This document shows, piece after piece, positions 1 through 48,446 of a DNA stretch of 64,000 nucleotides (position 1 is its first letter; each line of letters opens with the position of its first letter). Source of the stretch: an uncultured Alphaproteobacteria bacterium (GTDB taxonomy: Bacteria; Pseudomonadota; Alphaproteobacteria; Methylaequorales; Methylaequoraceae). The notes under the pieces were generated by a model. The model was given only the letters and a program-made list of their open reading frames with translations, was not told the origin of the DNA and ran no database searches. The position numbers were made by a program, and so were the translations under genes. The stretch is taken from NCBI GenBank assembly GCA_902524895.1, contig CABZFH010000002.1:74505-138504 (forward strand), given 5' to 3'.

Positions 1-746
1 TTTTCTTCATCATCACAAAAATTAGCTTCAACATTGTTTATAAATTTTGTCTTAAATTTATTAAAATTAACATTTTCTAACTCACTTTTCATAATATCAG
101 CGGCTGGTTGCATCAAACTAGAGTGAAAAGGTGCGCTCACGTTTAAATTTATAACTTTAGCACCTAAATCTCTTAATTTACCAGAAATATTTTTAAGCTT
201 TGATTTGTGACCAGAAAGTACAATTTGACCTGGACAGTTATCATTCGCAATATCACAAATCCCTGGGTCGGAATTCTTATTTATAAGTTCCTCAACTGTT
301 TGTATTTTAACACCTAAAACCGCAGTCATTTGAGTTTCTTCATTTTTCACAGCAGTTTGCATTGATTTACCTCTTATTTCTAATAATCTCGAAGCATCTT
401 CTAAGCTTAATACGTTTATCGAACACAATGCAGAGTACTCTCCAAGTGAATGACCAGAAACAATGGAAGCAATTTCATAAAAATTTTTCTTAAGTTCGTA
501 TTCTAAAACTCGAACTAGTGCTATACTAACAGCCATTAGTGCTGGCTGTGTATTGTATGTTTTTGTTAATTGCTCACTGTCTCCGTGAAAAATAATTTTT
601 GATAAATTCCTCTTTAAAATTTCATCTACTGACTGGAAAACTTCTTTTGCAGCTTTATGTTCTAAATATAGATCATATCCCATACCAACTTTTTGTGAAC
701 CTTGGCCAGGGAAAACAAACGCAATTTTTTTTTTTATTACATTCAT
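1..746 (-). CDS. fabD: Malonyl-CoA:ACP transacylase, truncated at the window edge
   Basis: Manual translation from ATG at 746: MNVIKKKIAFVFPGQGSQKVGMG...TQPALMAVS...SGHSLGEYSAL. Has the PGQGSQ and GHSLG motifs. Not in the ORF track because the stop lies outside the window. Confidence 0.95.
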   Translation of the reverse strand, partial: MNVIKKKIAFVFPGQGSQKVGMGYDLYLEHKAAKEVFQSVDEILKRNLSKIIFHGDSEQLTKTYNTQPALMAVSIALVRVLEYELKKNFYEIASIVSGHSLGEYSALCSINVLSLEDASRLLEIRGKSMQTAVKNEETQMTAVLGVKIQTVEELINKNSDPGICDIANDNCPGQIVLSGHKSKLKNISGKLRDLGAKVINLNVSAPFHSSLMQPAADIMKSELENVNFNKFKTKFINNVEANFCDDEE

Positions 747-32136: not shown

Positions 32137-33291
32137 ATGGCAGAAGATAAAGATGAAAGTCAGGAAAAATCCCAAGCACCTAGTTCACGTAAATTAGAAA
32201 AGGCTGCTGAAGAAGGAAGGGTTGTTCAATCTAAAGAAATGTATGTTTTTACTATTCTTTTTGCAGGAGTATTCCTAATGTACTCGTTACCTTTGGTAGT
32301 AAATGACTTTTTGATGAGTTTAAAATCATTTTTACAATTTGGACCAGAATTGAGAAATGGGCACTCTCCTTTGAAATCAATTGAAACAGCAATTAAAATG
32401 GTTGTAAAAATAACCATCATATTTGGTCTGCCATTATGTGTGGTTTGCATTTTAACTCAATATGCTGTTGGTGGTGGTATAAGATTTTCCTTTAAACCAA
32501 TGGAACCTAAATTAAGCAAGATTAATCCAATAAGTGGTTTAAAAAAAATTTTTTCAATTAAAGGACTAATAGAGTTATTTAAAGCTTTAATTAAAGTTTT
32601 CTTCCTTGGAGGAATAACAATTTTTGTTTTTAGTGAATATCTTCCAGAAATAACGCACCTTTCTCATCCAAATCTTTTTTCTGCTTTAAAAAAGCTATTA
32701 TCTTTTTTTCCAATACTTCTAGCTGCTCTACTAGTGGGCTTAGCAGTTATTGGTGCGATAGATTTTGCTTGGCAAAAATATGATTTTATAAAACAACTAA
32801 GAATGTCTCATCAGGATATTAAAGATGAGTATAAAGAAACAGACGGTCAACCAGAAGTTAAACAAAAAATTAGAAAACTTCAAATGCAAGCAGCTAATAA
32901 AAATAATAGAGAAAATGCTTCAATTGAAAATATGGATAAGGCCACTGCTATCATAACCAATCCAACTCATTTTGCAGTTGCTTTACAATATGAGGTTGGA
33001 GAATCTGATGCTCCCAAAATCATAGCAAAAGGACGTGGAAAAATTGCTGAAAGAATCATAGATGAGGCAAAGCTAAGAAATATTGGAAAATTGGAAAGTC
33101 CAGACTTAGCAAGAGCACTGTATTACACAACAGAAATTGGAGAAGAAGTTATGAGTAAACTATATAATGCAGTAGCAATAGCCTTGGCTTATATTTATAA
33201 AATTAATAGTGGAGAATCAATTGAAAAACCATTAATTAATATACCTGAAGAACTAATATTTGATGAATTTGGAAATCAAAATGATAAATAG
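32137..33291 (+). CDS. flhB: Export switch protein FlhB
   Basis: RMSHQDIKDEYKETDGQPEVK, NPTH cleavage motif, PDLARALY. Confidence 0.98.
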   Translation: MAEDKDESQEKSQAPSSRKLEKAAEEGRVVQSKEMYVFTILFAGVFLMYSLPLVVNDFLMSLKSFLQFGPELRNGHSPLKSIETAIKMVVKITIIFGLPLCVVCILTQYAVGGGIRFSFKPMEPKLSKINPISGLKKIFSIKGLIELFKALIKVFFLGGITIFVFSEYLPEITHLSHPNLFSALKKLLSFFPILLAALLVGLAVIGAIDFAWQKYDFIKQLRMSHQDIKDEYKETDGQPEVKQKIRKLQMQAANKNNRENASIENMDKATAIITNPTHFAVALQYEVGESDAPKIIAKGRGKIAERIIDEAKLRNIGKLESPDLARALYYTTEIGEEVMSKLYNAVAIALAYIYKINSGESIEKPLINIPEELIFDEFGNQNDK

Positions 33292-33493
33292 AAATATAAG
33301 TCAATTAATTATAACTTTTGCATTTTTTTACAGCTTCATTGTTTGCCATCTTGAAGCATTGGAAAAATACCAAAGAGGAGATTTTGTTATGAGTTATATC
33401 TTGTGGATATGCGCTTTATTTTCTTTTTTAGGTGCTTTGAGATTTAGGATAGCAAAAATAATTAATAGTTTAATAAAAAAAAAAGATGAATAA
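33281..33493 (+). CDS. Small hypothetical two-TM protein
   Basis: ATG overlaps the flhB stop; two hydrophobic stretches; overlaps the next ORF. Confidence 0.55.
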   Translation: MINRNISQLIITFAFFYSFIVCHLEALEKYQRGDFVMSYILWICALFSFLGALRFRIAKIINSLIKKKDE

Positions 33494-33704
33494 ATTCTCA
33501 GAAGATTGTAAAATATGCAAACATTTGTATGTGACTTATAAACCAAATTTTCCTTGGGGTTGTCGTGCATTTGGATTTATTTCAAAAAATTACCCTTATT
33601 CTCTTGTTTATAAGACTTCTGGCATGAAATGTGCGTTATTTTCAATGAACATTAAAAATAATAATAATGAACGAAAAGATAAAAAAAAAGGGAGACTTGC
33701 ATGA
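33486..33704 (+). CDS. Small four-cysteine protein of unknown function
   Basis: CKICKH...FPWGCRAFGF...SGMKC pattern; translationally coupled on both sides. Confidence 0.7.
   Translation: MNKFSEDCKICKHLYVTYKPNFPWGCRAFGFISKNYPYSLVYKTSGMKCALFSMNIKNNNNERKDKKKGRLA
33620..33635 (+). promoter_or_regulatory. Candidate internal sigma54 promoter for the MotF-like, hypothetical and RRF-like genes
   Basis: TGGCATGAAATGTGCG (GG-N10-GC), 66 bp before ATG 33701. It lies inside coding sequence and could be coincidental. Confidence 0.45.
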
Positions 33705-34426
33705 ATAATGATTTGAATACAATGCAGGAAAGTATTAAAATAGCCTTGGATGCTGCAGATGCTGCAACTGACGTTACTTCAGAATATAAAAGAATGAAAA
33801 ATGAATATATTAAAGCGGAGCAAAAAGTGAAAGAAATTCATAAATATACGACTATTATCTTCTCGGCTTCTATTGGTACAGCAATTGTGGCTATTTTACT
33901 AACAGGAGTTTTATATTTCAAATCTTTATCAGAATTGGAGGAAATGACAAATACCAGCCGTGAAGCACTTGTAGTATTTGCGGAAAACGTTGAATCTGTA
34001 AATAGTGCAGTTGACAATATGAATAGAAGTCTTGAAAAACACTCAGATTTAGTTAACGCAAATGCAGAAATAAAGAACAAGCTCTCAGAACTTACCTCTG
34101 CTATTGCGCAGAATGATAAAAATCTAATGGTAAGTTTGTCGAAAGAGATATCAAATCTATCAAAGTCTGTTTCAACTTCAATCAAAGTAGAAGCAGGTAA
34201 GTTGAGTTCTAATATTCAAGAAGGTGACATATTGACATCTGCTAAAATTAGTAAAGCAATAGATAAATTGATTTCTGATAATAAGAAAAATTCAAATGTA
34301 AAAATGTTAAAAGAATTGTCAAATTCTACTTCAAGTTTAACAACAGCCTTAAAAGCCATTTCCTCTCAAAATAAATTGCTTGTTAAAGAAATAACTGAGC
34401 AAAAAGAAAGTATAACTTTTCCTTAG
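33701..34426 (+). CDS. Single-TM coiled-coil protein, probable MotF-like fla1 motor accessory
   Basis: 241 aa, one TM at about residues 51-73, downstream of flhB. Size, topology and position fit my recollection of R. sphaeroides MotF; not verified by search. Confidence 0.55.
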   Translation: MNNDLNTMQESIKIALDAADAATDVTSEYKRMKNEYIKAEQKVKEIHKYTTIIFSASIGTAIVAILLTGVLYFKSLSELEEMTNTSREALVVFAENVESVNSAVDNMNRSLEKHSDLVNANAEIKNKLSELTSAIAQNDKNLMVSLSKEISNLSKSVSTSIKVEAGKLSSNIQEGDILTSAKISKAIDKLISDNKKNSNVKMLKELSNSTSSLTTALKAISSQNKLLVKEITEQKESITFP

Positions 34427-34434
34427 ATATTTCG

Positions 34435-35241
34435 ATGAATAATGAGTCTATAGAAGTAACCGATCAAAAAAAGTTACAAGAAAATCAAGGTTTTCTTCTT
34501 AAAATTGAAAGTATTAGAAGGAAAACTCATTCTTTTTCTCTTATGCTAAAAGAAGACGATATCATCGTCGCACTTAACAATCAATTTTATGTGACTGGGG
34601 AGAATCAATTGATCGATGAGTTAATTGAACTTCGGAAAAATAATGATAAAGCAATACTGACTATTAAAAGAGATGAATATTTTTTTGATATAATTGTAAG
34701 AAATAGTCTTGGTTGTAAATTTTCAAGTTTATCTTTAGAAGAAACAAAAAATATTCAAACGCAATTTGCCACTAAGAAAGTTTTTGATATTGAAGAAATG
34801 AGAGAATTCAATATTTTTAGAGATTTGAAAAATAACTTTGAATGTATAGAAGATACCTTTTCAATAGTTGCAGGGTTATTTCCTCCAGCTTGGTTAGCAT
34901 ATGAACAAAAATGGTGGGTACTTAGTTTTTTCTCAATTTTCAGTTTGCTTTTACTGTCTATAAACCCATGGATTTTTGCAATTGGTTGGATAATAGTTTC
35001 AATTTATTGTTATAAAGCTCAAAAAAATCTGATCTTTGGATTTACATTGCTATCAGGCAAAGCTCTGTCAATGAAAATCGCTGCAACTAGCATTCACGAA
35101 GCTCATAAAATTATTAGATACTTTTATCCAAAGTCCAAATTTAAATATTCTAGATTAGATAGTCCTCAAATGGTTGAGGGAGAAGATAATTTTAGTAAAG
35201 ATAAAAAAAATATTTCTGAAACTGAAAATGCTTTGATATAA
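34435..35241 (+). CDS. Hypothetical membrane protein, possible PDZ-like N-terminus and DUF2628-like TM region
   Basis: LKEDDIIVALN...LTIKRD resembles PDZ; LFPPAWLAYEQKWW precedes TM helices. Confidence 0.5.
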   Translation: MNNESIEVTDQKKLQENQGFLLKIESIRRKTHSFSLMLKEDDIIVALNNQFYVTGENQLIDELIELRKNNDKAILTIKRDEYFFDIIVRNSLGCKFSSLSLEETKNIQTQFATKKVFDIEEMREFNIFRDLKNNFECIEDTFSIVAGLFPPAWLAYEQKWWVLSFFSIFSLLLLSINPWIFAIGWIIVSIYCYKAQKNLIFGFTLLSGKALSMKIAATSIHEAHKIIRYFYPKSKFKYSRLDSPQMVEGEDNFSKDKKNISETENALI

Positions 35242-35247
35242 TAAGTT

Positions 35248-35844
35248 ATGGCCGAACAATACTCTATTCAAGCTGAAACTCTAATGAAAGCTGCTGTTGA
35301 AGATTACTTAGAAATCATAAAAACAGTCCAGTCTTCCAATGCAAATATGGCTGTTATTAAATCTGTCAAGGTTACAATTAATGGAAAACCAAGAAGATTA
35401 GTAGATATTGGAGACCTAAGAACAGGAGAAAATGATAATAAACTTCAGGTCTTAGTTTTTAATACAGATCATATTGAATTGCTTGTTGATCAAATTAATG
35501 AAGCGGGTTTTGAGACTAATGTTGATGGTCAATTTGTTAATATTGATGTGCCTGATCCAACTTTTAAACAACTTATGGAGGTAGTTGACGATCTTCAAAG
35601 GAAAAAAAACTCCGCACTTGGAAGACTTACAAAAGCCAAATCAGAAGCCACAACCAGGGCTCGAACCGCTGTTGAAAATGAGTTTATTGAGCAAGCAGTA
35701 GCGAGTCAGGCCTCTAAAAAATGTGATGTTTTTTTTGGACAGTATTCTGACGAAATTAATTTACATACAACGACAAAAATTAAAGAAATACTCGGAGATG
35801 AATTTTACGCAAAGTTCGAAGAAGAACAAGCTATGTTTGATTAA
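35248..35844 (+). CDS. Divergent ribosome-recycling-factor (RRF) fold protein, not the housekeeping Frr
   Basis: Manual alignment to E. coli Frr holds along the whole length, but the IRTGRA, TEERR and RNVRR motifs are replaced. Confidence 0.75.
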   Translation: MAEQYSIQAETLMKAAVEDYLEIIKTVQSSNANMAVIKSVKVTINGKPRRLVDIGDLRTGENDNKLQVLVFNTDHIELLVDQINEAGFETNVDGQFVNIDVPDPTFKQLMEVVDDLQRKKNSALGRLTKAKSEATTRARTAVENEFIEQAVASQASKKCDVFFGQYSDEINLHTTTKIKEILGDEFYAKFEEEQAMFD

Positions 35845-35846
35845 GT

Positions 35847-36542
35847 TTATGCCTTAATACTTAAAGAATTTTTAACTTTTGCTGTATCTTTGTTTGTATT
35901 GTAAAAACTTCGTATTTGAGAAAAATTAAACATTTCTAATCTTCTCACTTTATCTGAATCTTCTTCAAAGTTTTTCTTTGGGTAGTTGAATTCCAATATA
36001 CGACCATTTTTCTTAAAAACTTTTGAATTTTGATGATTACTTTCAAAGCTTTTCGTTTCGGGAAAAATATTTCTTAACTCTTCTTTACTATTATTTTCTT
36101 GAACTTCTTGGGTAGACAATTTATTAGTTTGAGTGATTTTTTTTTTATCATTTAAATTTGCAACTTCTGTATTTTCTTTTTCTTTCCAAATTTTACTAAT
36201 TCCAGTAAACTCTAAAAATAATTCTGTCGGTGTACTGTCAAATAATTTATTAAAAATCCAGTTACCAACCCCAGCTATTGCACCTATTGGCCCTCCATAG
36301 AGAAAGCCTCCTAACCCGTTTTGAACCATATCTCTATCTGAATCCTTGTTTTCAGAATTAATGCTGGAATATATACCGCTAATTAATGGCAAATTTTGCA
36401 AAGGATTGATTGCCCCTTTAATCCATTTCAAAAAACTAAAGGTTGAGTCTTCATTATTTTCTTTTAAATTTTTTTTGCTTAATGAAATTTTTTCATTATC
36501 AAGTTTTTTAGAATGGTAAAATGGACTCTTTTCTATAAACAT
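35847..36542 (-). CDS. Conserved-looking alphaproteobacterial hypothetical protein
   Basis: INPLQNLPLISGIY...GGFLYGGPIGAIAG motif; starts 6 bp downstream of motB. Confidence 0.65.
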   Translation of the reverse strand: MFIEKSPFYHSKKLDNEKISLSKKNLKENNEDSTFSFLKWIKGAINPLQNLPLISGIYSSINSENKDSDRDMVQNGLGGFLYGGPIGAIAGVGNWIFNKLFDSTPTELFLEFTGISKIWKEKENTEVANLNDKKKITQTNKLSTQEVQENNSKEELRNIFPETKSFESNHQNSKVFKKNGRILEFNYPKKNFEEDSDKVRRLEMFNFSQIRSFYNTNKDTAKVKNSLSIKA

Positions 36543-36548
36543 TTTTCT

Positions 36549-37727
36549 TTAATAATTTATTTCAATTTCTATTCTTCTGTTTTTTTCTCTACCTTCTGAA
36601 GTGTCATTTGAACCTAATGGTTGCGTTTCACCATAGCTAATTGCCTTCATTCTTTTTGGTTGAAGTTTACCTGTAGATGATAATTCCTGAACAACAGATG
36701 AAGATCTAGCCGCTGCTAAATCCCAGTTATCTCTATATATTGATCCAAATATTAATGGTGTATCATCAGTATGACCTGACACTAAAATTTCACTTTTACC
36801 TTTTTTATTGAGGTCGGCAATTTTTGCCATAATTTTCTTAGCTTTAGATGTTAATTCGGCAGAGCCAGATTTAAACGCACCACCTGAACCCACTGTTATG
36901 ATTACTTTATCTTCATCTCTGTCAACATTAATCAAGCCTTCTCCAATTTCTTTTCTAAGAGCTATTTTAAATTTATCTTCTGCTATTTGAGCTTTTTTTT
37001 CTTCTTCTTTAGAAATGTCTGGAGATTCTCCAATATTGTTTCCATCTGAAGATTCAGATTCTAGCTTTCCTTTACTGGCTGCAGCTGTCGCTAATTGAGC
37101 AAGTTTCTGTTCTAAGCCACCAAACAAAACTTCTGATTCTGATTTTCCAGACGCAGACTTTACTGTTTCTATTGAGTTAAGAGTTTCTTGCAGTAAATTT
37201 GGTAAATCTTTTTCCTCAGCTTCAAGCGGAGTGAAATTTACAATTACTTTATCTGCTAATACCTCAACCTCAATATCACCCCTAGCAATAGCATCTTTTA
37301 TATTTTGTGCTAATTCTGTGGCATCCTCGTTTTGTCCATCATCTTTGGTATTATCTTGAGTTTTAGTTTTAAGCTCAACATTCTTTTGATCAGTTTCAGT
37401 GGTCTGCTGTTTTAAGTTTTCTTGCACGGCCGGCGTTGGATTAGGACTAAAACTTAACGATAATAATGTTGTCCCTTTAGGTTGTTCAACAACTGGAATT
37501 ATCCTTTGAATACCAAATGCATTTTTCATGCTTCCACTAATTTGCTTGAATTTAGGAACATTAAATTCTGCGAAAGAAAGAATTAAGACGAAAAATGCCA
37601 TCAACAATGTTGCCATATCTGCAAAAGTTGCCATCCACGCAGGGGCACCTTTTGGAGGACATTCTGGGCATTCGTGTTCCTCTTCATCTTTAGTTTCTTT
37701 TTTTTTTTCTTCTTTTTCCTCAGCCAT
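36549..37727 (-). CDS. motB: Flagellar stator B subunit (PomB/MotB-like)
   Basis: WMATFADMATLLMAFFVLILSF TM with the conserved Asp; OmpA-like domain GHTD...NWDLAAARS...NRRIEI. Confidence 0.95.
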   Translation of the reverse strand: MAEEKEEKKKETKDEEEHECPECPPKGAPAWMATFADMATLLMAFFVLILSFAEFNVPKFKQISGSMKNAFGIQRIIPVVEQPKGTTLLSLSFSPNPTPAVQENLKQQTTETDQKNVELKTKTQDNTKDDGQNEDATELAQNIKDAIARGDIEVEVLADKVIVNFTPLEAEEKDLPNLLQETLNSIETVKSASGKSESEVLFGGLEQKLAQLATAAASKGKLESESSDGNNIGESPDISKEEEKKAQIAEDKFKIALRKEIGEGLINVDRDEDKVIITVGSGGAFKSGSAELTSKAKKIMAKIADLNKKGKSEILVSGHTDDTPLIFGSIYRDNWDLAAARSSSVVQELSSTGKLQPKRMKAISYGETQPLGSNDTSEGREKNRRIEIEINY

Positions 37728-37750
37728 TTATCTTTTATCTTTCCTGTAAT

Positions 37751-38518
37751 TTATGCCGCAGCCTCTATTAGTTTTTGTTTTTCTTTTGGAGGAAGATTAG
37801 CAACAAGTTGATCTTGAATGTTTCTTCCACTTTCTCCTCGAGAAATTAACTGTAAGCCGGTAATTATCATTTCTCTATAAGTCACTTCATAAGTTGTGTA
37901 GCCTTTCATTTTCACAACAATTGGCATAAAAATAGTGTTTGCAATCATAGCTCCATATAGAGTGGTCAAAAGGGCAACGGCCATTGCAGGCCCAATAGCC
38001 TTTGGGTCAGCCATGTTACCTAACATTGCTACTAATCCAACTAAAGTTCCAATCATGCCCATTGCTGGCGCAATATCAACCCAAGCTTGAGCAACTCCAG
38101 TTGATTTTGCATGTCTACCTTGCATCGCTTTTAATTCTTTTTTTAATTGTATGGTTAATTTCTCTTCATCAGCACCATCTACAAGCATCTGCAAACCACT
38201 ATCAAAAAATGGATCTGGGGTTTCTTGACCTTCAAGAGCCATCATTCCATCTTTTCTGGCTATTCCAGCGAGCTCAACTATTCTGGTGATTAATTCGTCC
38301 ATTTTTTTAATAGGCGGTTTAAAGGCTTTAGCCATAGCCCCGAATGACCCTAAGAAAAGTGGTAATGGCGCAGTATACATTACAGCGAAAAATGTTCCAC
38401 CAAAAACAATTAAAATTGAAGGTATGTCAACGTACATACCTATTCCGCCTGCAGAAACCATTGCACCTGCGATCATACCTATAGTTCCTAAAAGTCCAAT
38501 GAGTGATGCTATATCCAT
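37751..38518 (-). CDS. motA: Flagellar stator A subunit, short PomA-like type
   Basis: ARKDGMMALE, APAMGMIGTLVGLV, IGPAMAVALLTTLYG; 255 aa. Confidence 0.96.
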   Translation of the reverse strand: MDIASLIGLLGTIGMIAGAMVSAGGIGMYVDIPSILIVFGGTFFAVMYTAPLPLFLGSFGAMAKAFKPPIKKMDELITRIVELAGIARKDGMMALEGQETPDPFFDSGLQMLVDGADEEKLTIQLKKELKAMQGRHAKSTGVAQAWVDIAPAMGMIGTLVGLVAMLGNMADPKAIGPAMAVALLTTLYGAMIANTIFMPIVVKMKGYTTYEVTYREMIITGLQLISRGESGRNIQDQLVANLPPKEKQKLIEAAA

Positions 38519-44946: not shown

Positions 44947-45327
44947 GTGGCAGACAACCAATCAATAATAGGAACAGACGTAATATTTAAGGGAAAAATC
45001 ACTAACTCTAAAACCATTGAAATTAATGGTAGGGTTGAAGCTGATATTAAATCTGAAAAAATAACGTTAGGTAAAACCGCAAGTTTTGAAGGTGGTATCC
45101 AAGCTGATCTAGTAGTGATTTCTGGTAAATATCAAGGAAAACTTAAAGCTGATTCGGTGTGGCTAACAGATTCGTCCATTATAACCGGTGAAATAAATTA
45201 TAAATCCCTACAAATGGATCGCGGTGCAGCATTAAATTGTAGAGTCGTTCACAATTGGGATGAAAAAAAAATGCGGAATAAAAAAAATGATGAAGATCTA
45301 GAAGAAGACTTAAACGAAAATAATTAG
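44947..45327 (+). CDS. Bactofilin 2
   Basis: SIIGTDVIFKGKI...IEINGRVEADI...ITGEINYKSLQMDRGA. Confidence 0.9.
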   Translation: MADNQSIIGTDVIFKGKITNSKTIEINGRVEADIKSEKITLGKTASFEGGIQADLVVISGKYQGKLKADSVWLTDSSIITGEINYKSLQMDRGAALNCRVVHNWDEKKMRNKKNDEDLEEDLNENN

Positions 45328-45335
45328 AGGCAGAT

Positions 45336-45653
45336 ATGAGTGATCTAACATACATAAATAAAGATTTGAATATGGAGGGCACACTTCAAGCCAAAGAAAG
45401 TCAGGTTGTAATTGCAGGGAAATACAAAGGTACAATTGAAGCTAAAACTGTAATTCTTGAGTCCACAAGTATATTTGACGGAACCTTAAATGCAGAACAT
45501 TTAAAGATTGAAGGCCAGGCTTCTGGGGATATTACCGCTGAATTTCTTGAAATAACGGGTTCTGGGAACTTTGATGGTAAACTTAAGACTAATTCACTTT
45601 CCGTTGATATGGGTGCAAAAGTTTCTGGAAATGTAGGCAGAATTACAGGTTAA
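45336..45653 (+). CDS. Bactofilin 3, minimal with no tails
   Basis: TYINKDLNMEGTL...GKYKGTI...FDGKLKTNSLSVDMGAKVSG. Confidence 0.88.
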   Translation: MSDLTYINKDLNMEGTLQAKESQVVIAGKYKGTIEAKTVILESTSIFDGTLNAEHLKIEGQASGDITAEFLEITGSGNFDGKLKTNSLSVDMGAKVSGNVGRITG

Positions 45654-46001: not shown

Positions 46002-46391
46002 ATGACTCAAGATAAACAATCTAAATCTTTAATACCAATAAAAAATAATGAAGTAGCTGTAGTAAAAGCAGGGAATAATAAAGATCCATTAAATATATCA
46101 GAAAAATTACAACACTTTAAAAATAGAGATGAGGTAAAAAAGTTTTTACCAGATATACTTGGAAGAGTTCTTGCGAGAATATGGATTGATTCAGAGTTTA
46201 GAGAAGAATTTTCTGTTGATCCACAAAAAACTTTAGAATTTAATGGAGTGTATTTACCTGAAGATATGTATATAGAATTCCAAAAGCCCAATTCAGATAG
46301 GCCGAAAATTGTTGTCTATCAACAGAGACCTAAGTCAAAGTTTAAGTTAAGAGTTCTTTACCTACAATTAGTTATGATGGCTGGACGGTGA
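46002..46391 (+). CDS. Protein with a nitrile-hydratase-alpha/NHLP-leader-like motif
   Basis: VLARIWIDSEFREEFSVDPQKTLEFNGVYLPE resembles the A.AW.D..F+..L..DP...L...G..LP motif. Confidence 0.6.
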   Translation: MTQDKQSKSLIPIKNNEVAVVKAGNNKDPLNISEKLQHFKNRDEVKKFLPDILGRVLARIWIDSEFREEFSVDPQKTLEFNGVYLPEDMYIEFQKPNSDRPKIVVYQQRPKSKFKLRVLYLQLVMMAGR

Positions 46392-47020
46392 TCTTTAAGA
46401 AAATTAAATTATTATTTTTTGTTTTTCCCTTTTTTCTATTAGCAGATGAATATCTCTCAGACGAAAAATATTATGATAAAGGTATAGAATTATATAAAAG
46501 TGCAAAATTTTCTGAGGCATTCATAATTTTTTATAACCTGTCAATTAAGGGAGATAGAAATTCTCAATTTAATTTGTCAAATATGTACTCCGGTGGAATT
46601 GGTACTACTCAAGATTTCAGTGAGGCACTTAAATGGAGTTGGTTATGCTCATTAGGTGGTGAAAAGAAATGTTTTGAAAACTTAGAGTCATTAAAATCTG
46701 AAGTTGACGAAAAAACCCTAGAAAAAATTTCAAAAAATGTTGAAAAACTTCTCGAAAAAGAACTTTATAAATCACAAGATATTCAATATGCATTAAAATT
46801 AGGTTTTTGGTTTGAAAAATTTTCTCCAAATATAGATTTTGAAAAATCATATATGTGGTACTCTGTAGCAGTTACTGGGGGACTTTACAAGGCGATGAAA
46901 GTAAGAGATAAAGTAAGAAAAAAAATTGAAAATGAAGCTGTTATAAAACTTCAAAAAGAAGCAAATAAAATTTATACCAATATCAAGTATTTTGTAAATA
47001 AAAATGGAGATCAAAAATGA
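46388..47020 (+). CDS. Sel1-like repeat exported protein
   Basis: SQFNLSNMYSGGIGTTQDFSEALKW; DFEKSYMWYSVA. Confidence 0.85.
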   Translation: MIFKKIKLLFFVFPFFLLADEYLSDEKYYDKGIELYKSAKFSEAFIIFYNLSIKGDRNSQFNLSNMYSGGIGTTQDFSEALKWSWLCSLGGEKKCFENLESLKSEVDEKTLEKISKNVEKLLEKELYKSQDIQYALKLGFWFEKFSPNIDFEKSYMWYSVAVTGGLYKAMKVRDKVRKKIENEAVIKLQKEANKIYTNIKYFVNKNGDQK

Positions 47021-47238
47021 AATACAAAGTTCACTGGATAATAGATGGATTAATTGATGTTGATGCGGAATCAAAGGAAGAAGCCGAGAAAAAAGTTCAA
47101 GAAGAGCTTGAAACATATGTGAAAAATTCAGAAAAACTGATGAATGTATTTATAGCTAAATCTATTCAAGGTTCGGCATATTTACCAGGTGCTGAGCAAA
47201 AGGATGAAAATAAAAATGAAGATAATAATAATTCTTAA
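47017..47238 (+). CDS. Small acidic hypothetical protein
   Basis: YKVHW...IDVDAESKEEAEKKV beta-beta-alpha pattern; SD GGAG; coupled to the upstream gene. Confidence 0.65.
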   Translation: MKYKVHWIIDGLIDVDAESKEEAEKKVQEELETYVKNSEKLMNVFIAKSIQGSAYLPGAEQKDENKNEDNNNS

Positions 47239-47546: not shown

Positions 47547-48446
47547 TTGAAAATAAGACAAAGATGTTGGGAACTCCTAGAACCTGGTGAAGAAAATGAT
47601 AGTAATAGTAAAAAAGTAGATATTTTTTTATTAGGTTTAATTTCTTTAAATATTTTATCAGTGATATTGGAAACTGTTGATAGTTTATTTAATCAGTACA
47701 AAGTTACATTTCAATATTTTGAATTTTTTTCAGTTTTAGTCTTTACAATCGAGTACATGGCTAGGCTATGGTCTTGTGTTACAGAGAAATTTAATAATGA
47801 AACCAACCTTAAGAGAAGAATTAAATACTTTTTTAGCTTTTCTGCAATTATTGATTTAATTGCAATATTACCGAGTATTATCGCTTTGATATATCCAACC
47901 ATTGATTTAAGATTTATAAGAGCATTGAGAATAATAAGACTGCTTAAATTTTCTCGTTACTCAAGCTCAATTAATAACTTACTTTCAGTAATTTGGAATC
48001 AAAGAAGATCATTTGGTGCAGCATATTTCATTTTATTTATCGCTTTAATAATTTCATCTAGTGGTATGTATTTGGTTGAAAAAGATGTTCAACCAGAAAA
48101 ATTTGGGAGTATTCCTCACGCAATGTGGTGGGCAATTGTTACACTGACAAGTGTAGGATATGGTGATGTAACGCCAATAACATCAATGGGTAAGTTTTTT
48201 GGATCTGTGATTATTATTTTAGGTATTTTAACAGTGGCATTGCCATCAGGAATTTTAGCTGCAGCATTTACTGATTTTACAAGGAAAAGCCAAAAAAAAT
48301 ATGAAGATAAACTTAAAGGAATGTTATCAGATAATTTTATTGATGCAGATGAAAGAAAAGAACTTATAAAATTATCTGAAAAATTAAACCTTTCTGAAGA
48401 TGACATTATTTCAATAGAAAACGACAGTAAAATCAATAAAAGTTAA
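47547..48446 (+). CDS. Six-TM voltage-gated-type potassium channel
   Basis: S4 RFIRALRIIRLLK, pore WWAIVTLTSVGYGD. Confidence 0.92.
   Translation: MKIRQRCWELLEPGEENDSNSKKVDIFLLGLISLNILSVILETVDSLFNQYKVTFQYFEFFSVLVFTIEYMARLWSCVTEKFNNETNLKRRIKYFFSFSAIIDLIAILPSIIALIYPTIDLRFIRALRIIRLLKFSRYSSSINNLLSVIWNQRRSFGAAYFILFIALIISSSGMYLVEKDVQPEKFGSIPHAMWWAIVTLTSVGYGDVTPITSMGKFFGSVIIILGILTVALPSGILAAAFTDFTRKSQKKYEDKLKGMLSDNFIDADERKELIKLSEKLNLSEDDIISIENDSKINKS

Follow-up and report, generated by a model that had tools for sequence, protein, structure and literature searches.

The 64,000-nucleotide (nt) stretch of DNA analysed here as a whole (the window; positions 74,505 to 138,504 of the forward strand of contig CABZFH010000002.1, assembly GCA_902524895.1, from an uncultured alphaproteobacterium of the family Methylaequoraceae, below called the source family) contains, at the end of a flagellar operon, a gene encoding a diverged paralog of ribosome recycling factor (RRF, the product of frr). 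We designate this protein RRFL1, after the RRF-like (RRFL) family to which it belongs. The location of RRFL genes beside flagellar genes in four subclades, their retention there despite relocation, and the phyletic pattern of the family favour a role associated with the flagellum, namely that of an accessory or regulatory protein which would act on the cytoplasmic side of the basal body. We assign to this reading, which is drawn from sequence comparison, a probability somewhat below one half (about 0.45).

RRFL1 as an extra, diverged member of the RRF family

A sequence-only reading that preceded this analysis had described the gene, with exact coordinates, as encoding a 198-amino-acid (aa) homolog of RRF. 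Profile searches agree with this description: RRFL1 matches the Pfam family RRF (PF01765) with 42.7 bits against a cut-off of 29.7, the match covering positions 5-164 of the 164 in the model, and its best sequence match in PDB (phmmer) is Aquifex RRF 1ge9 (E 4.6e-7). A hhalign-type profile-profile comparison of 15 canonical alphaproteobacterial Frr proteins with 20 RRFL members aligned the two over 178 columns at 17% identity (probability of 98.5%, E 3e-15). Many other members of the family score at 20-28 bits, i.e., below the Pfam cut-off. RRFL1 and the Frr of its own genome are 21% identical, and the near-gapless alignment to Frr that had been claimed earlier was borne out except for one 2-residue gap, a 10-residue insertion after the loop between helices 3 and 4, and a C-terminal extension. 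The core motifs common to RRFL and Frr include a YG..PL-like strand, LxVxVF/WD, and DGQxI.

The motifs characteristic of canonical RRFs are changed. In the alignment with Frr of the same genome, LRTGRA is replaced with VQSSNA, TEERRK with TFKQLM, and VRNVRRD with TKAKSEA, and the same replacements are seen in the profile-profile comparison with the 15 canonical proteins. Eight residues that are invariant or nearly so in the latter (R27, G29, R30, E107, R109, R128, R131, and R132) were checked, and seven of them, namely R27, G29, and R30 of RTGRA, E107 and R109 of TEERR, as well as R128 and R132, are replaced in RRFL. The sole retained one is R131, which is present as an invariant lysine (K131) and corresponds to E. 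coli R132, the residue mutated in the PDB structure 1ise (R132G). The sequence-only reading was thus right about the changes in IRTGRA, TEERR, and RNVRR but slightly overstated the loss of basic residues, as the equivalent of R132 is a lysine and helix 3 has a net charge of +3. RRFL1 proteins are acidic overall (median isoelectric point, pI, ~4.8; net charge -10), and the added acidic tail noted earlier was found as well, the last helix together with the tail having a net charge of -6.

The source assembly (1.43 Mb, 28.9% G+C, 84% complete) contains, in the context of tsf-pyrH-frr-uppS-cdsA, a canonical frr with all classic motifs (G000:C4:9970-10461; 212 bits on Pfam RRF), in agreement with the earlier description of RRFL1 as a degenerate extra paralog. 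A canonical frr is present also in all 16 RRFL-bearing genomes tested, which represent three lineages. Its product scores 200-220 bits in 15 of them, the remaining one being cut by a contig end, while the RRFL copies of the same genomes score 22-50 bits, and no intermediate scores were found. Hence the comparison presents RRFL1 as an extra, diverged paralog and not as the housekeeping recycling factor of the cell. A second working recycling factor, serving as a backup or condition-specific isoform of Frr, is highly improbable. RRFL1 passes the Pfam gathering threshold, and public pipelines name RRFL-family proteins 'ribosome recycling factor' or 'hypothetical', but its score on the frr equivalog model of NCBIfam (TIGR00496) is 25.6 bits vs. 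a cut-off of 149.1, and the low identity to its own Frr, the loss of canonical invariant residues, the bimodal scores in the 16 genomes, and the restriction of the family to a few marine lineages all speak against such a function. As a functional statement, the label 'ribosome recycling factor' is probably wrong.

The nine genomes of the source family whose translation factors were examined encode at most one elongation factor G (EF-G) each, so no dedicated translation partner for RRFL, in the form of an EF-G paralog, is present in these siblings. The source assembly lacks the str operon genes fusA and tuf, and no EF-G/EF-Tu G1 motif occurs in any frame, which is presumably due to an assembly gap in this metagenome-assembled genome (MAG).

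The AlphaFold2 model of RRFL1, built from 16 homologs (pLDDT 91, pTM 0.77), comprises a helix (residues 2-24), an alpha/beta domain (31-100), and two further helices (106-143 and 149-197). All of its top 27 Foldseek matches in PDB are RRFs (E down to 3.5e-13), as the RRF fold assumed in the sequence-only reading would predict, and their TM-scores of 0.5-0.65 are those expected for a hinged two-domain protein. According to the model, RRFL1 keeps the two-domain, L-shaped fold of RRF, which consists of a three-helix bundle and an inserted alpha/beta domain. Both the length class and this fold are common to RRFL and Frr (PF01765, TIGR00496; PDB 1ek8, 1eh1, 1ge9, 6vud). What distinguishes RRFL is the identity of 17-21%, the replacement of invariant Arg and Gly residues, the 10-residue insertion, the acidic C-terminal tail, and its constant occurrence as an additional copy, away from the tsf-pyrH-frr-uppS locus; to these can be added the location in a flagellar cluster, the sigma-54-like promoter, and the fusion of one member with a BLUF domain, which are described below. 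The Foldseek matches include organellar RRFs (mtRRF and chloroplast RRF; PDB 6nu2, 7nsi, 6eri), which also are extra RRF-family proteins with terminal extensions. They differ from RRFL in having the canonical motifs, and they are still active in ribosome recycling.

Several sequence features are peculiar to the RRFL family: the N-terminus carries the motif [DE]-x-Y-S-x-x-A, domain II carries G-[KR]-x-R-R-[LI]-x-D, and K-x-K...R.+A..E.E-[FY]-I-[DE] extends over the end of helix 3 and the loop after it. Residues Y5, S6, R49, D53, K131, R137, E145, I147, and A152 (P0001 numbering) are near-invariant across the whole family. Since the N-terminus of helix 1 and the helix 3-helix 4 loop should be located at one distal tip of the molecule, the signature of the family would mark this tip and a face of helix 3; the placement at the tip follows from the bundle topology and not from coordinates of the model. 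Near-invariant blocks are present in the ~120 RRFL1 orthologs, in which helix 3 is the most conserved part. RRFL1 proteins share also the C-terminal tail [FY]xK[YF]xxEE[LQ]x[FP], which is missing from a second paralog, RRFL2 (see below). The pattern of conservation indicates that RRFL is under purifying selection. In RRFL1 itself, a Pfam scan detected neither PilZ nor any other signalling domain.

Distribution of the RRFL family and its association with flagellar genes

Across the source family, RRFL1 orthologs are 49-78% identical, and RRFL is present in 37 of the 42 genomes, including all nine of high quality, while its absences are accounted for by contig ends or incompleteness. An apparent loss in one genome (G020) was rejected, as the contig ends ~600 bp past flhB. 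An apparent pseudogene in another (G057) was rejected as well, because motB, fliP, fliM, and o241 (Table 1) are frameshifted too, which points to a poor assembly.

An exhaustive profile search of 1.84 billion representatives gave merely 115 hits at E<=1e-3, which means that canonical RRFs are almost wholly excluded from the RRFL set. Among the hits there is a wider group of 212-233-aa proteins with the family-specific motifs. Five hits (P0146, P0171, P0189, P0190, and P0217) are encoded by contigs of 0.9-3.4 kb, too short for their context to be judged. The 266-aa P0225, with an N-terminal extension and a score of 142 bits on Pfam RRF (vs. 22-50 for RRFL), looks like an organelle-type RRF. A scan for degenerate motifs over one genome per prokaryote species resulted in 52 hits, of which two were chance matches and 50 were true members. 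Their carriers belong to SAR116/Puniceispirillum, Rhodobacteraceae (Planktomarina, Marinovum, Ascidiaceihabitans, and strain IMCC1909), and unnamed marine Alphaproteobacteria. Among 401 sampled genomes of the class, the RRFL paralog was found in the source family and in one other genome (G430) only, and the remaining scorers were all canonical Frr; two borderline hits among these (G067 and G084, 61-71 bits) were rejected, having all the canonical motifs. In a maximum-likelihood tree, the RRFL family forms one clade, separated from canonical Frr by a very long branch, with RRFL1 nearest to the canonical root. A literature search for RRF paralogs, RRF-like proteins, or RRF-BLUF yielded no paper describing RRFL, in line with the earlier remark that no such system has been described. 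Relative to this literature, RRFL is a small, old, and undescribed paralog family.

Many sibling genomes encode, in addition, RRFL2, which is ~32-39% identical to RRFL1, has a pI of ~8.7, and has no acidic tail (e.g., L027:9738-10328 in G013 and L029:9700-10302 in G018). It was not found in the 84%-complete genome of the source itself. RRFL of the Rhodobacteraceae type, accompanied by the same neighbours, occurs also on six short contigs (L090, L095, L109, L113, L122, and L123) binned as Flavobacteriaceae, Crocinitomicaceae, or Bacteroidetes, which probably reflects mis-binning rather than transfer.

Genes of four separate RRFL subclades adjoin flagellar genes, at different positions of the flagellar clusters. 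Besides the source family, in which RRFL1 ends the tail of genes that follows flhB, these are Rhodobacteraceae, in which RRFL adjoins genes for a sigma-54 activator (226 bits), FliS (44.8 bits), and a FliL-family protein (28.9 bits; all by Pfam), the subclade of P0137, and that of a BLUF fusion. Further flagellar links were seen at loci L121, L126, and L130. At one Planktomarina locus, fliE/fliF are within 4 kb of RRFL. A Marinovum contig (MED682) carries a cluster of the same type and order as that of the window, with two sigma-54 activator genes, fliEFGHI, fliLMNPQR, and flhB, the last of which is followed by homologs of o77, o72Cys, o241, and o268, while RRFL is located ~20 kb away, at the opposite end of the cluster. 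It thus appears that the Marinovum RRFL was relocated yet stayed with the cluster. RRFL of the P0137 type is encoded 430 bp downstream of fliG, whose product is 62% identical to FliG of the window, and is followed by a convergent gene for a single-domain cyclic nucleotide (cNMP)-binding protein (L130:1448-1879). In P0188, a protein of 409 aa, the RRF-like part is fused with a BLUF domain (83.7 bits; L126:936-2165, a Logan DRR337518 contig), and the genes for a FlgF/G-like rod protein, a FliA-like sigma factor, a FlhG-like ATPase, and FlhA are 3-9 kb away. The same contig holds homologs of the window genes at 46002-47238. Genes for cNMP-binding proteins directly adjoin RRF-like genes in two different subclades (those of G430 and L130).

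Co-occurrence with flagella was analysed in the family of G430 (f121), in which RRFL is patchy and unlinked to flagellar genes. In this one family, without control for phylogeny, 11 of the 57 genomes encode RRFL, 16 encode FlhA, and eight encode both (Fisher one-sided p 8e-4); five of the 13 genera are flagellated, and these include all four genera with RRFL (p 0.007). The three genomes with RRFL and without FlhA are 56-93% complete and belong to flagellated genera. FlhA is encoded by all seven RRFL carriers tested from SAR116 and Rhodobacteraceae.

The operon of RRFL1 and its neighbours

The flagellar content of the window comprises genes for FliEFGHI, FliLMNOPQR, FlhB, MotAB, two sigma-54 activators, and RpoN. 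As stated in the sequence-only reading, RRFL1 is encoded by the last gene of a same-strand run, fliL-fliM-fliN-fliO-fliP-fliQ-fliR-flhB-o77-o72-o241-o268-RRFL (Table 1). It starts 6 nt past the o268 stop codon and ends 2 nt from the stop codon of o231, the last gene of the convergent o231-motB-motA operon. All 11 loci compared, from ten genera, share the gene order from fliLMNOPQR to RRFL, opposite to o231-motB-motA; motA and motB were assigned by the Pfam families MotA_ExbB, MotB_plug, and OmpA.

Table 1. Coordinates of RRFL1 and adjacent features in the window
Feature	Position	Strand	Description	Basis
flhB	32137..33291	+	export-gate component; heads five-gene tail	Pfam Bac_export_2, 335.7 bits
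o77	33260..33493	+	small protein with two transmembrane (TM) segments; overlaps flhB stop	sequence
o72Cys	33486..33704	+	72-aa four-Cys protein; overlaps both neighbours	homolog after flhB in Marinovum
sigma-54-type -24/-12 element	33620-33634	+	TGGCATGAAATGTGC; 81 nt upstream of o241 start, inside o72Cys	
o241	33701..34426	+	bitopic, 241 aa; one TM at ~49-73, long coiled-coil C-terminal part	
o268	34435..35241	+	N-terminal PDZ-like domain, two predicted TM helices, cytoplasmic C-terminal part	
RRFL1	35248..35844	+	198-aa divergent RRF paralog; ATG at 35248, stop codon 35842-35844	open reading frame, Pfam, fold
RRFL1 protein layout	residues 2-24; 25-105; 106-143; 149-198		helix 1; domain II; helix 3; helix 4 and acidic tail	
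convergent operon	35847..38518	-	motA 37751-38518, motB 36549-37727, o231 35847-36542	

A promoter had been proposed at 33620, and a sigma-54-type element was indeed found there. All 11 orthologous loci have such an element, at a position from -69 to -81 relative to o241, although its conservation is partly confounded by the overlap with G-x-x-C-A codons of o72Cys. The same bases may act both as a sigma-54-like promoter and as o72Cys codons. The motif occurs five times on both strands of the 64-kb window, including twice in the motA/o169 divergent region. No terminator-like site was found between o241, o268, and RRFL, and a scan of 33200-36700 for sigma-70 promoters and terminators returned no more than expected by chance. 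We infer that o241, o268, and RRFL may be co-transcribed as a three-gene unit behind the sigma-54-like promoter.

The product of o268 contains a PDZ-like part that is predicted with AlphaFold2 pLDDT of 81-88 and whose top Foldseek hits are almost all PDZ domains (Nas2, RseP, GRASP, DegP; E 7e-4 to 1e-2). Its sequence matches weakly the PDZ region of HtrA/DegP, and a homolog is encoded in the Marinovum flhB tail, while a profile search against PDB sequences found nothing. As o268 has no signal peptide, its PDZ domain should face the cytoplasm. The C-terminus of the o268 orthologs is hydrophobic and conserved (E-A-L-V / N-A-L-I) and itself resembles a PDZ ligand motif.

No Pfam family matched o241, and its homolog at the same position in Marinovum is 33% identical to it. 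The window resembles the Fla1 system of Cereibacter (Rhodobacter) sphaeroides in having two sigma-54 activators, one with and one without the helix-turn-helix domain, as FleQ and FleT, together with RpoN and FliL. The size of o241, the position of its TM segment, its bitopic architecture, and its Fla1 location liken it, by description alone, to MotF of that system, a bitopic protein of ~24 kDa with TM near residues 54-74 and an extensive C-terminal portion in the periplasm, which is needed together with FliL to release the MotB plug (PMC7277832). The relatives of the Marinovum o241 homolog (120) include no named hit, only unnamed marine proteins. In the original paper on motF, this gene is reportedly the first of a unit that also includes two hypothetical genes, the same arrangement as that of o241 here. 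While MotF faces the periplasm and activates the stator plug, RRFL appears to be a soluble protein of the cytoplasm. No Cereibacter RRFL was encountered, though no direct search of Cereibacter was made.

Homologs of other window genes were also encountered close to RRFL elsewhere. The Ion_trans-family channel gene at 47547-48446 has ~40-42% identical homologs a few genes from Rhodobacteraceae RRFL, where they adjoin a ClC-type channel gene (cluster c10; L083, L087, L092, L094, L120, and L122). At another locus (L096:1-5300), an RRF-like copy is ~2 kb from homologs of the window bactofilin genes (44947-45653) and has homologs of the Ion_trans channel gene and the 42463-43773 gene in its vicinity as well; the module formed by these genes flanks rpoN in the window.

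Possible functions of RRFL

The assumption of a flagellar role of RRFL has to be confronted with a number of observations that weigh against it. The synteny within the source family could be inherited and has little weight alone. Eight of ~12 RRFL subclades have no flagellar gene in the DNA examined: three SAR116 synteny groups are found beside genes for a thiamine pyrophosphate (TPP) enzyme and a PNPOx-like protein, beside alanine dehydrogenase, Hsp20, YccV, and Suf genes (group C), and beside an EamA transporter gene, respectively, and the G430 copy precedes a gene for a tandem cNMP-binding protein (L071:2567-3922), among metabolic genes. None of the SAR116 loci retrieved encodes a homolog of MotA or MotB. 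RRFL2 genes of the source family are flanked by genes for DUF2798/cupredoxin-like proteins and for DnaJ-domain and TerB-domain proteins. Eight flagellated genomes of f121 have no RRFL, and therefore the protein is not needed for the flagellum as such. In a genome of the same genus as the source (G001), a 146-bp out-of-frame deletion flanked by 5-bp CAAAT microhomology affects RRFL1 alone (L037:5196-5646, G001:C28, vs. window 35248-35847), and the neighbouring flagellar genes are intact and 90-100% identical; this is either a real loss, which hints at dispensability of RRFL, or an assembly error. Conversely, in strain IMCC1909 (G439:C1:358492-366064), RRFL is an intact open frame of 248 aa located 5 kb from flhA, the sequence matching flhA is interrupted by two in-frame TAA codons, and the genome yielded no flhB; the flagellar cluster may be decaying. 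Concerning the details of the proposed role, the Foldseek E-values for the PDZ part of o268 are marginal, the pairing of this domain with the tail of RRFL1, considered below, is purely our inference, and the basic helix 3 and K131 leave room for ribosome binding. The link of RRFL to flagella is, as far as the loci compared can tell, not exclusive, given the unlinked RRFL2, SAR116, and G430 copies. Accordingly, the connection with motility proposed in the sequence-only reading held for the four flagellar-adjacent subclades and for the co-occurrence in f121, and did not hold for RRFL2 and most SAR116 copies. In all, RRFL1 is not the only frr product of its genome, its predicted structure is RRF-like, and its homologs are not generally unlinked from flagellar genes.

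Part of these observations could be explained if the function of RRFL were unrelated to flagella, for instance in stress response, proteostasis, or another cytoplasmic process, and its position in the cluster were a neutral accident. The DnaJ-domain and TerB neighbours of RRFL2, the Hsp20 and YccV/HspQ-like neighbours in SAR116 group C, the prevalence of subclades without a flagellar neighbour, and the discordant state of RRFL and flagellar genes in G001 and IMCC1909 agree with such a function, which we nevertheless consider rather unlikely. The four flagellar-adjacent subclades, with RRFL in the flhB tail, at the fleQ-fliS-fliL end, after fliG, and near flhA/fliA, point away from coincidence: if ~4% of a genome is within 10 kb of flagellar genes, the chance of finding four of 12 subclades there is ~1e-3, a rough estimate that ignores shared ancestry. 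The confinement of RRFL in f121 to flagellated genera despite the lack of linkage, the presence of FlhA in all seven carriers tested from other lineages, and the conserved sigma-54-like promoter upstream also speak against a neutral position.

According to another possibility, RRFL has retained binding to the RRF site of the ribosome and serves as a specialised translation factor or regulator which, for example, holds, splits, or re-routes ribosomes on flagellar mRNAs, thereby coupling protein synthesis to export or assembly checkpoints. The preservation of the whole fold, with both domains and the tRNA-like architecture, together with the basic helix 3 and the lysine equivalent of R132, makes a ribosome-directed role possible. 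Helix 3, which binds rRNA in Frr, is the most conserved part of the protein and contains the invariant K131 and R137, and the Rhodobacteraceae gene is near fliS, encoding a flagellin chaperone. On the other hand, seven of eight canonical invariants are replaced, including both Arg residues of RTGRA and R109 of TEERR, RRFL1 is acidic overall, the siblings have no dedicated EF-G paralog, and the operon partners are membrane proteins and not translation components. The BLUF fusion and the cNMP-binding neighbours also better fit a signalling effector. The ribosome-directed role is, in our opinion, rather unlikely, though less so than that of a backup Frr.

If, as we favour, RRFL is a flagellum-associated protein, RRFL1 would be made together with a Fla1-type, sigma-54-dependent flagellum, as the product of the last gene of the o241-o268-RRFL unit, which follows flhB and faces motAB. 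As a soluble cytoplasmic protein, it would act at the flagellar base, on the stator/rotor or on the export gate, and it could be docked via the distal tip of its helical bundle (Y5-S6 and the E145-x-I147 loop) and via the face of helix 3 with the invariant K131 and R137. The acidic-aromatic C-terminal tail (EEL[DE][FP]), specific to RRFL1, is a plausible ligand of the PDZ domain of the neighbouring o268. The conservation of this tail in RRFL1, its absence from RRFL2, and the presence of a PDZ domain in the adjacent gene product make such an interaction a concrete idea.

Given the BLUF fusion and the cNMP-binding neighbours, the RRFL family may be an output module that couples signals to motility. 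A more far-reaching proposal, which we regard as doubtful, is that the fold of a translation factor has left translation and that RRF-like proteins of abundant marine Alphaproteobacteria are signal-responsive cytoplasmic effectors of the flagellar motor or export gate, tethered by a PDZ membrane protein in the source family and controlled by blue light or cyclic nucleotides elsewhere. Such an effector might be a brake, a clutch, or an assembly regulator of a new class, formed on a tRNA-shaped scaffold. Soluble effectors of the flagellar motor derived from other folds include the PilZ brakes YcgR and MotI and the clutch EpsE, the last being an unrelated enzyme fold recruited to the motor. By analogy, RRFL may be a small cytoplasmic protein whose gene accompanies those for motility or signalling and that docks to FliG or MotA and makes the motor output dependent on a signal, although, unlike those proteins, it has no PilZ or glycosyltransferase domain; this functional comparison is speculative.

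In bacteria, RRF is considered a translation factor with one purpose and one gene copy, and no bacterial RRF paralog with another role was found in the literature searched. Relative to that literature, RRFL represents a previously undescribed set of paralogs of this well-known factor, probably with a new role. Were it still to work on ribosomes, it would be a rare homolog of the recycling factor dedicated to one pathway. Fla1 has been studied in Cereibacter sphaeroides, where stator activation is controlled by accessory proteins such as MotF and FliL. Should the link to flagella hold, RRFL would be an unexpected added component of the Fla1-type flagellum, and swimming might be under the control of light or cyclic nucleotides in very abundant ocean bacteria, i.e., SAR116, the Roseobacter group, and relatives of the source MAG.

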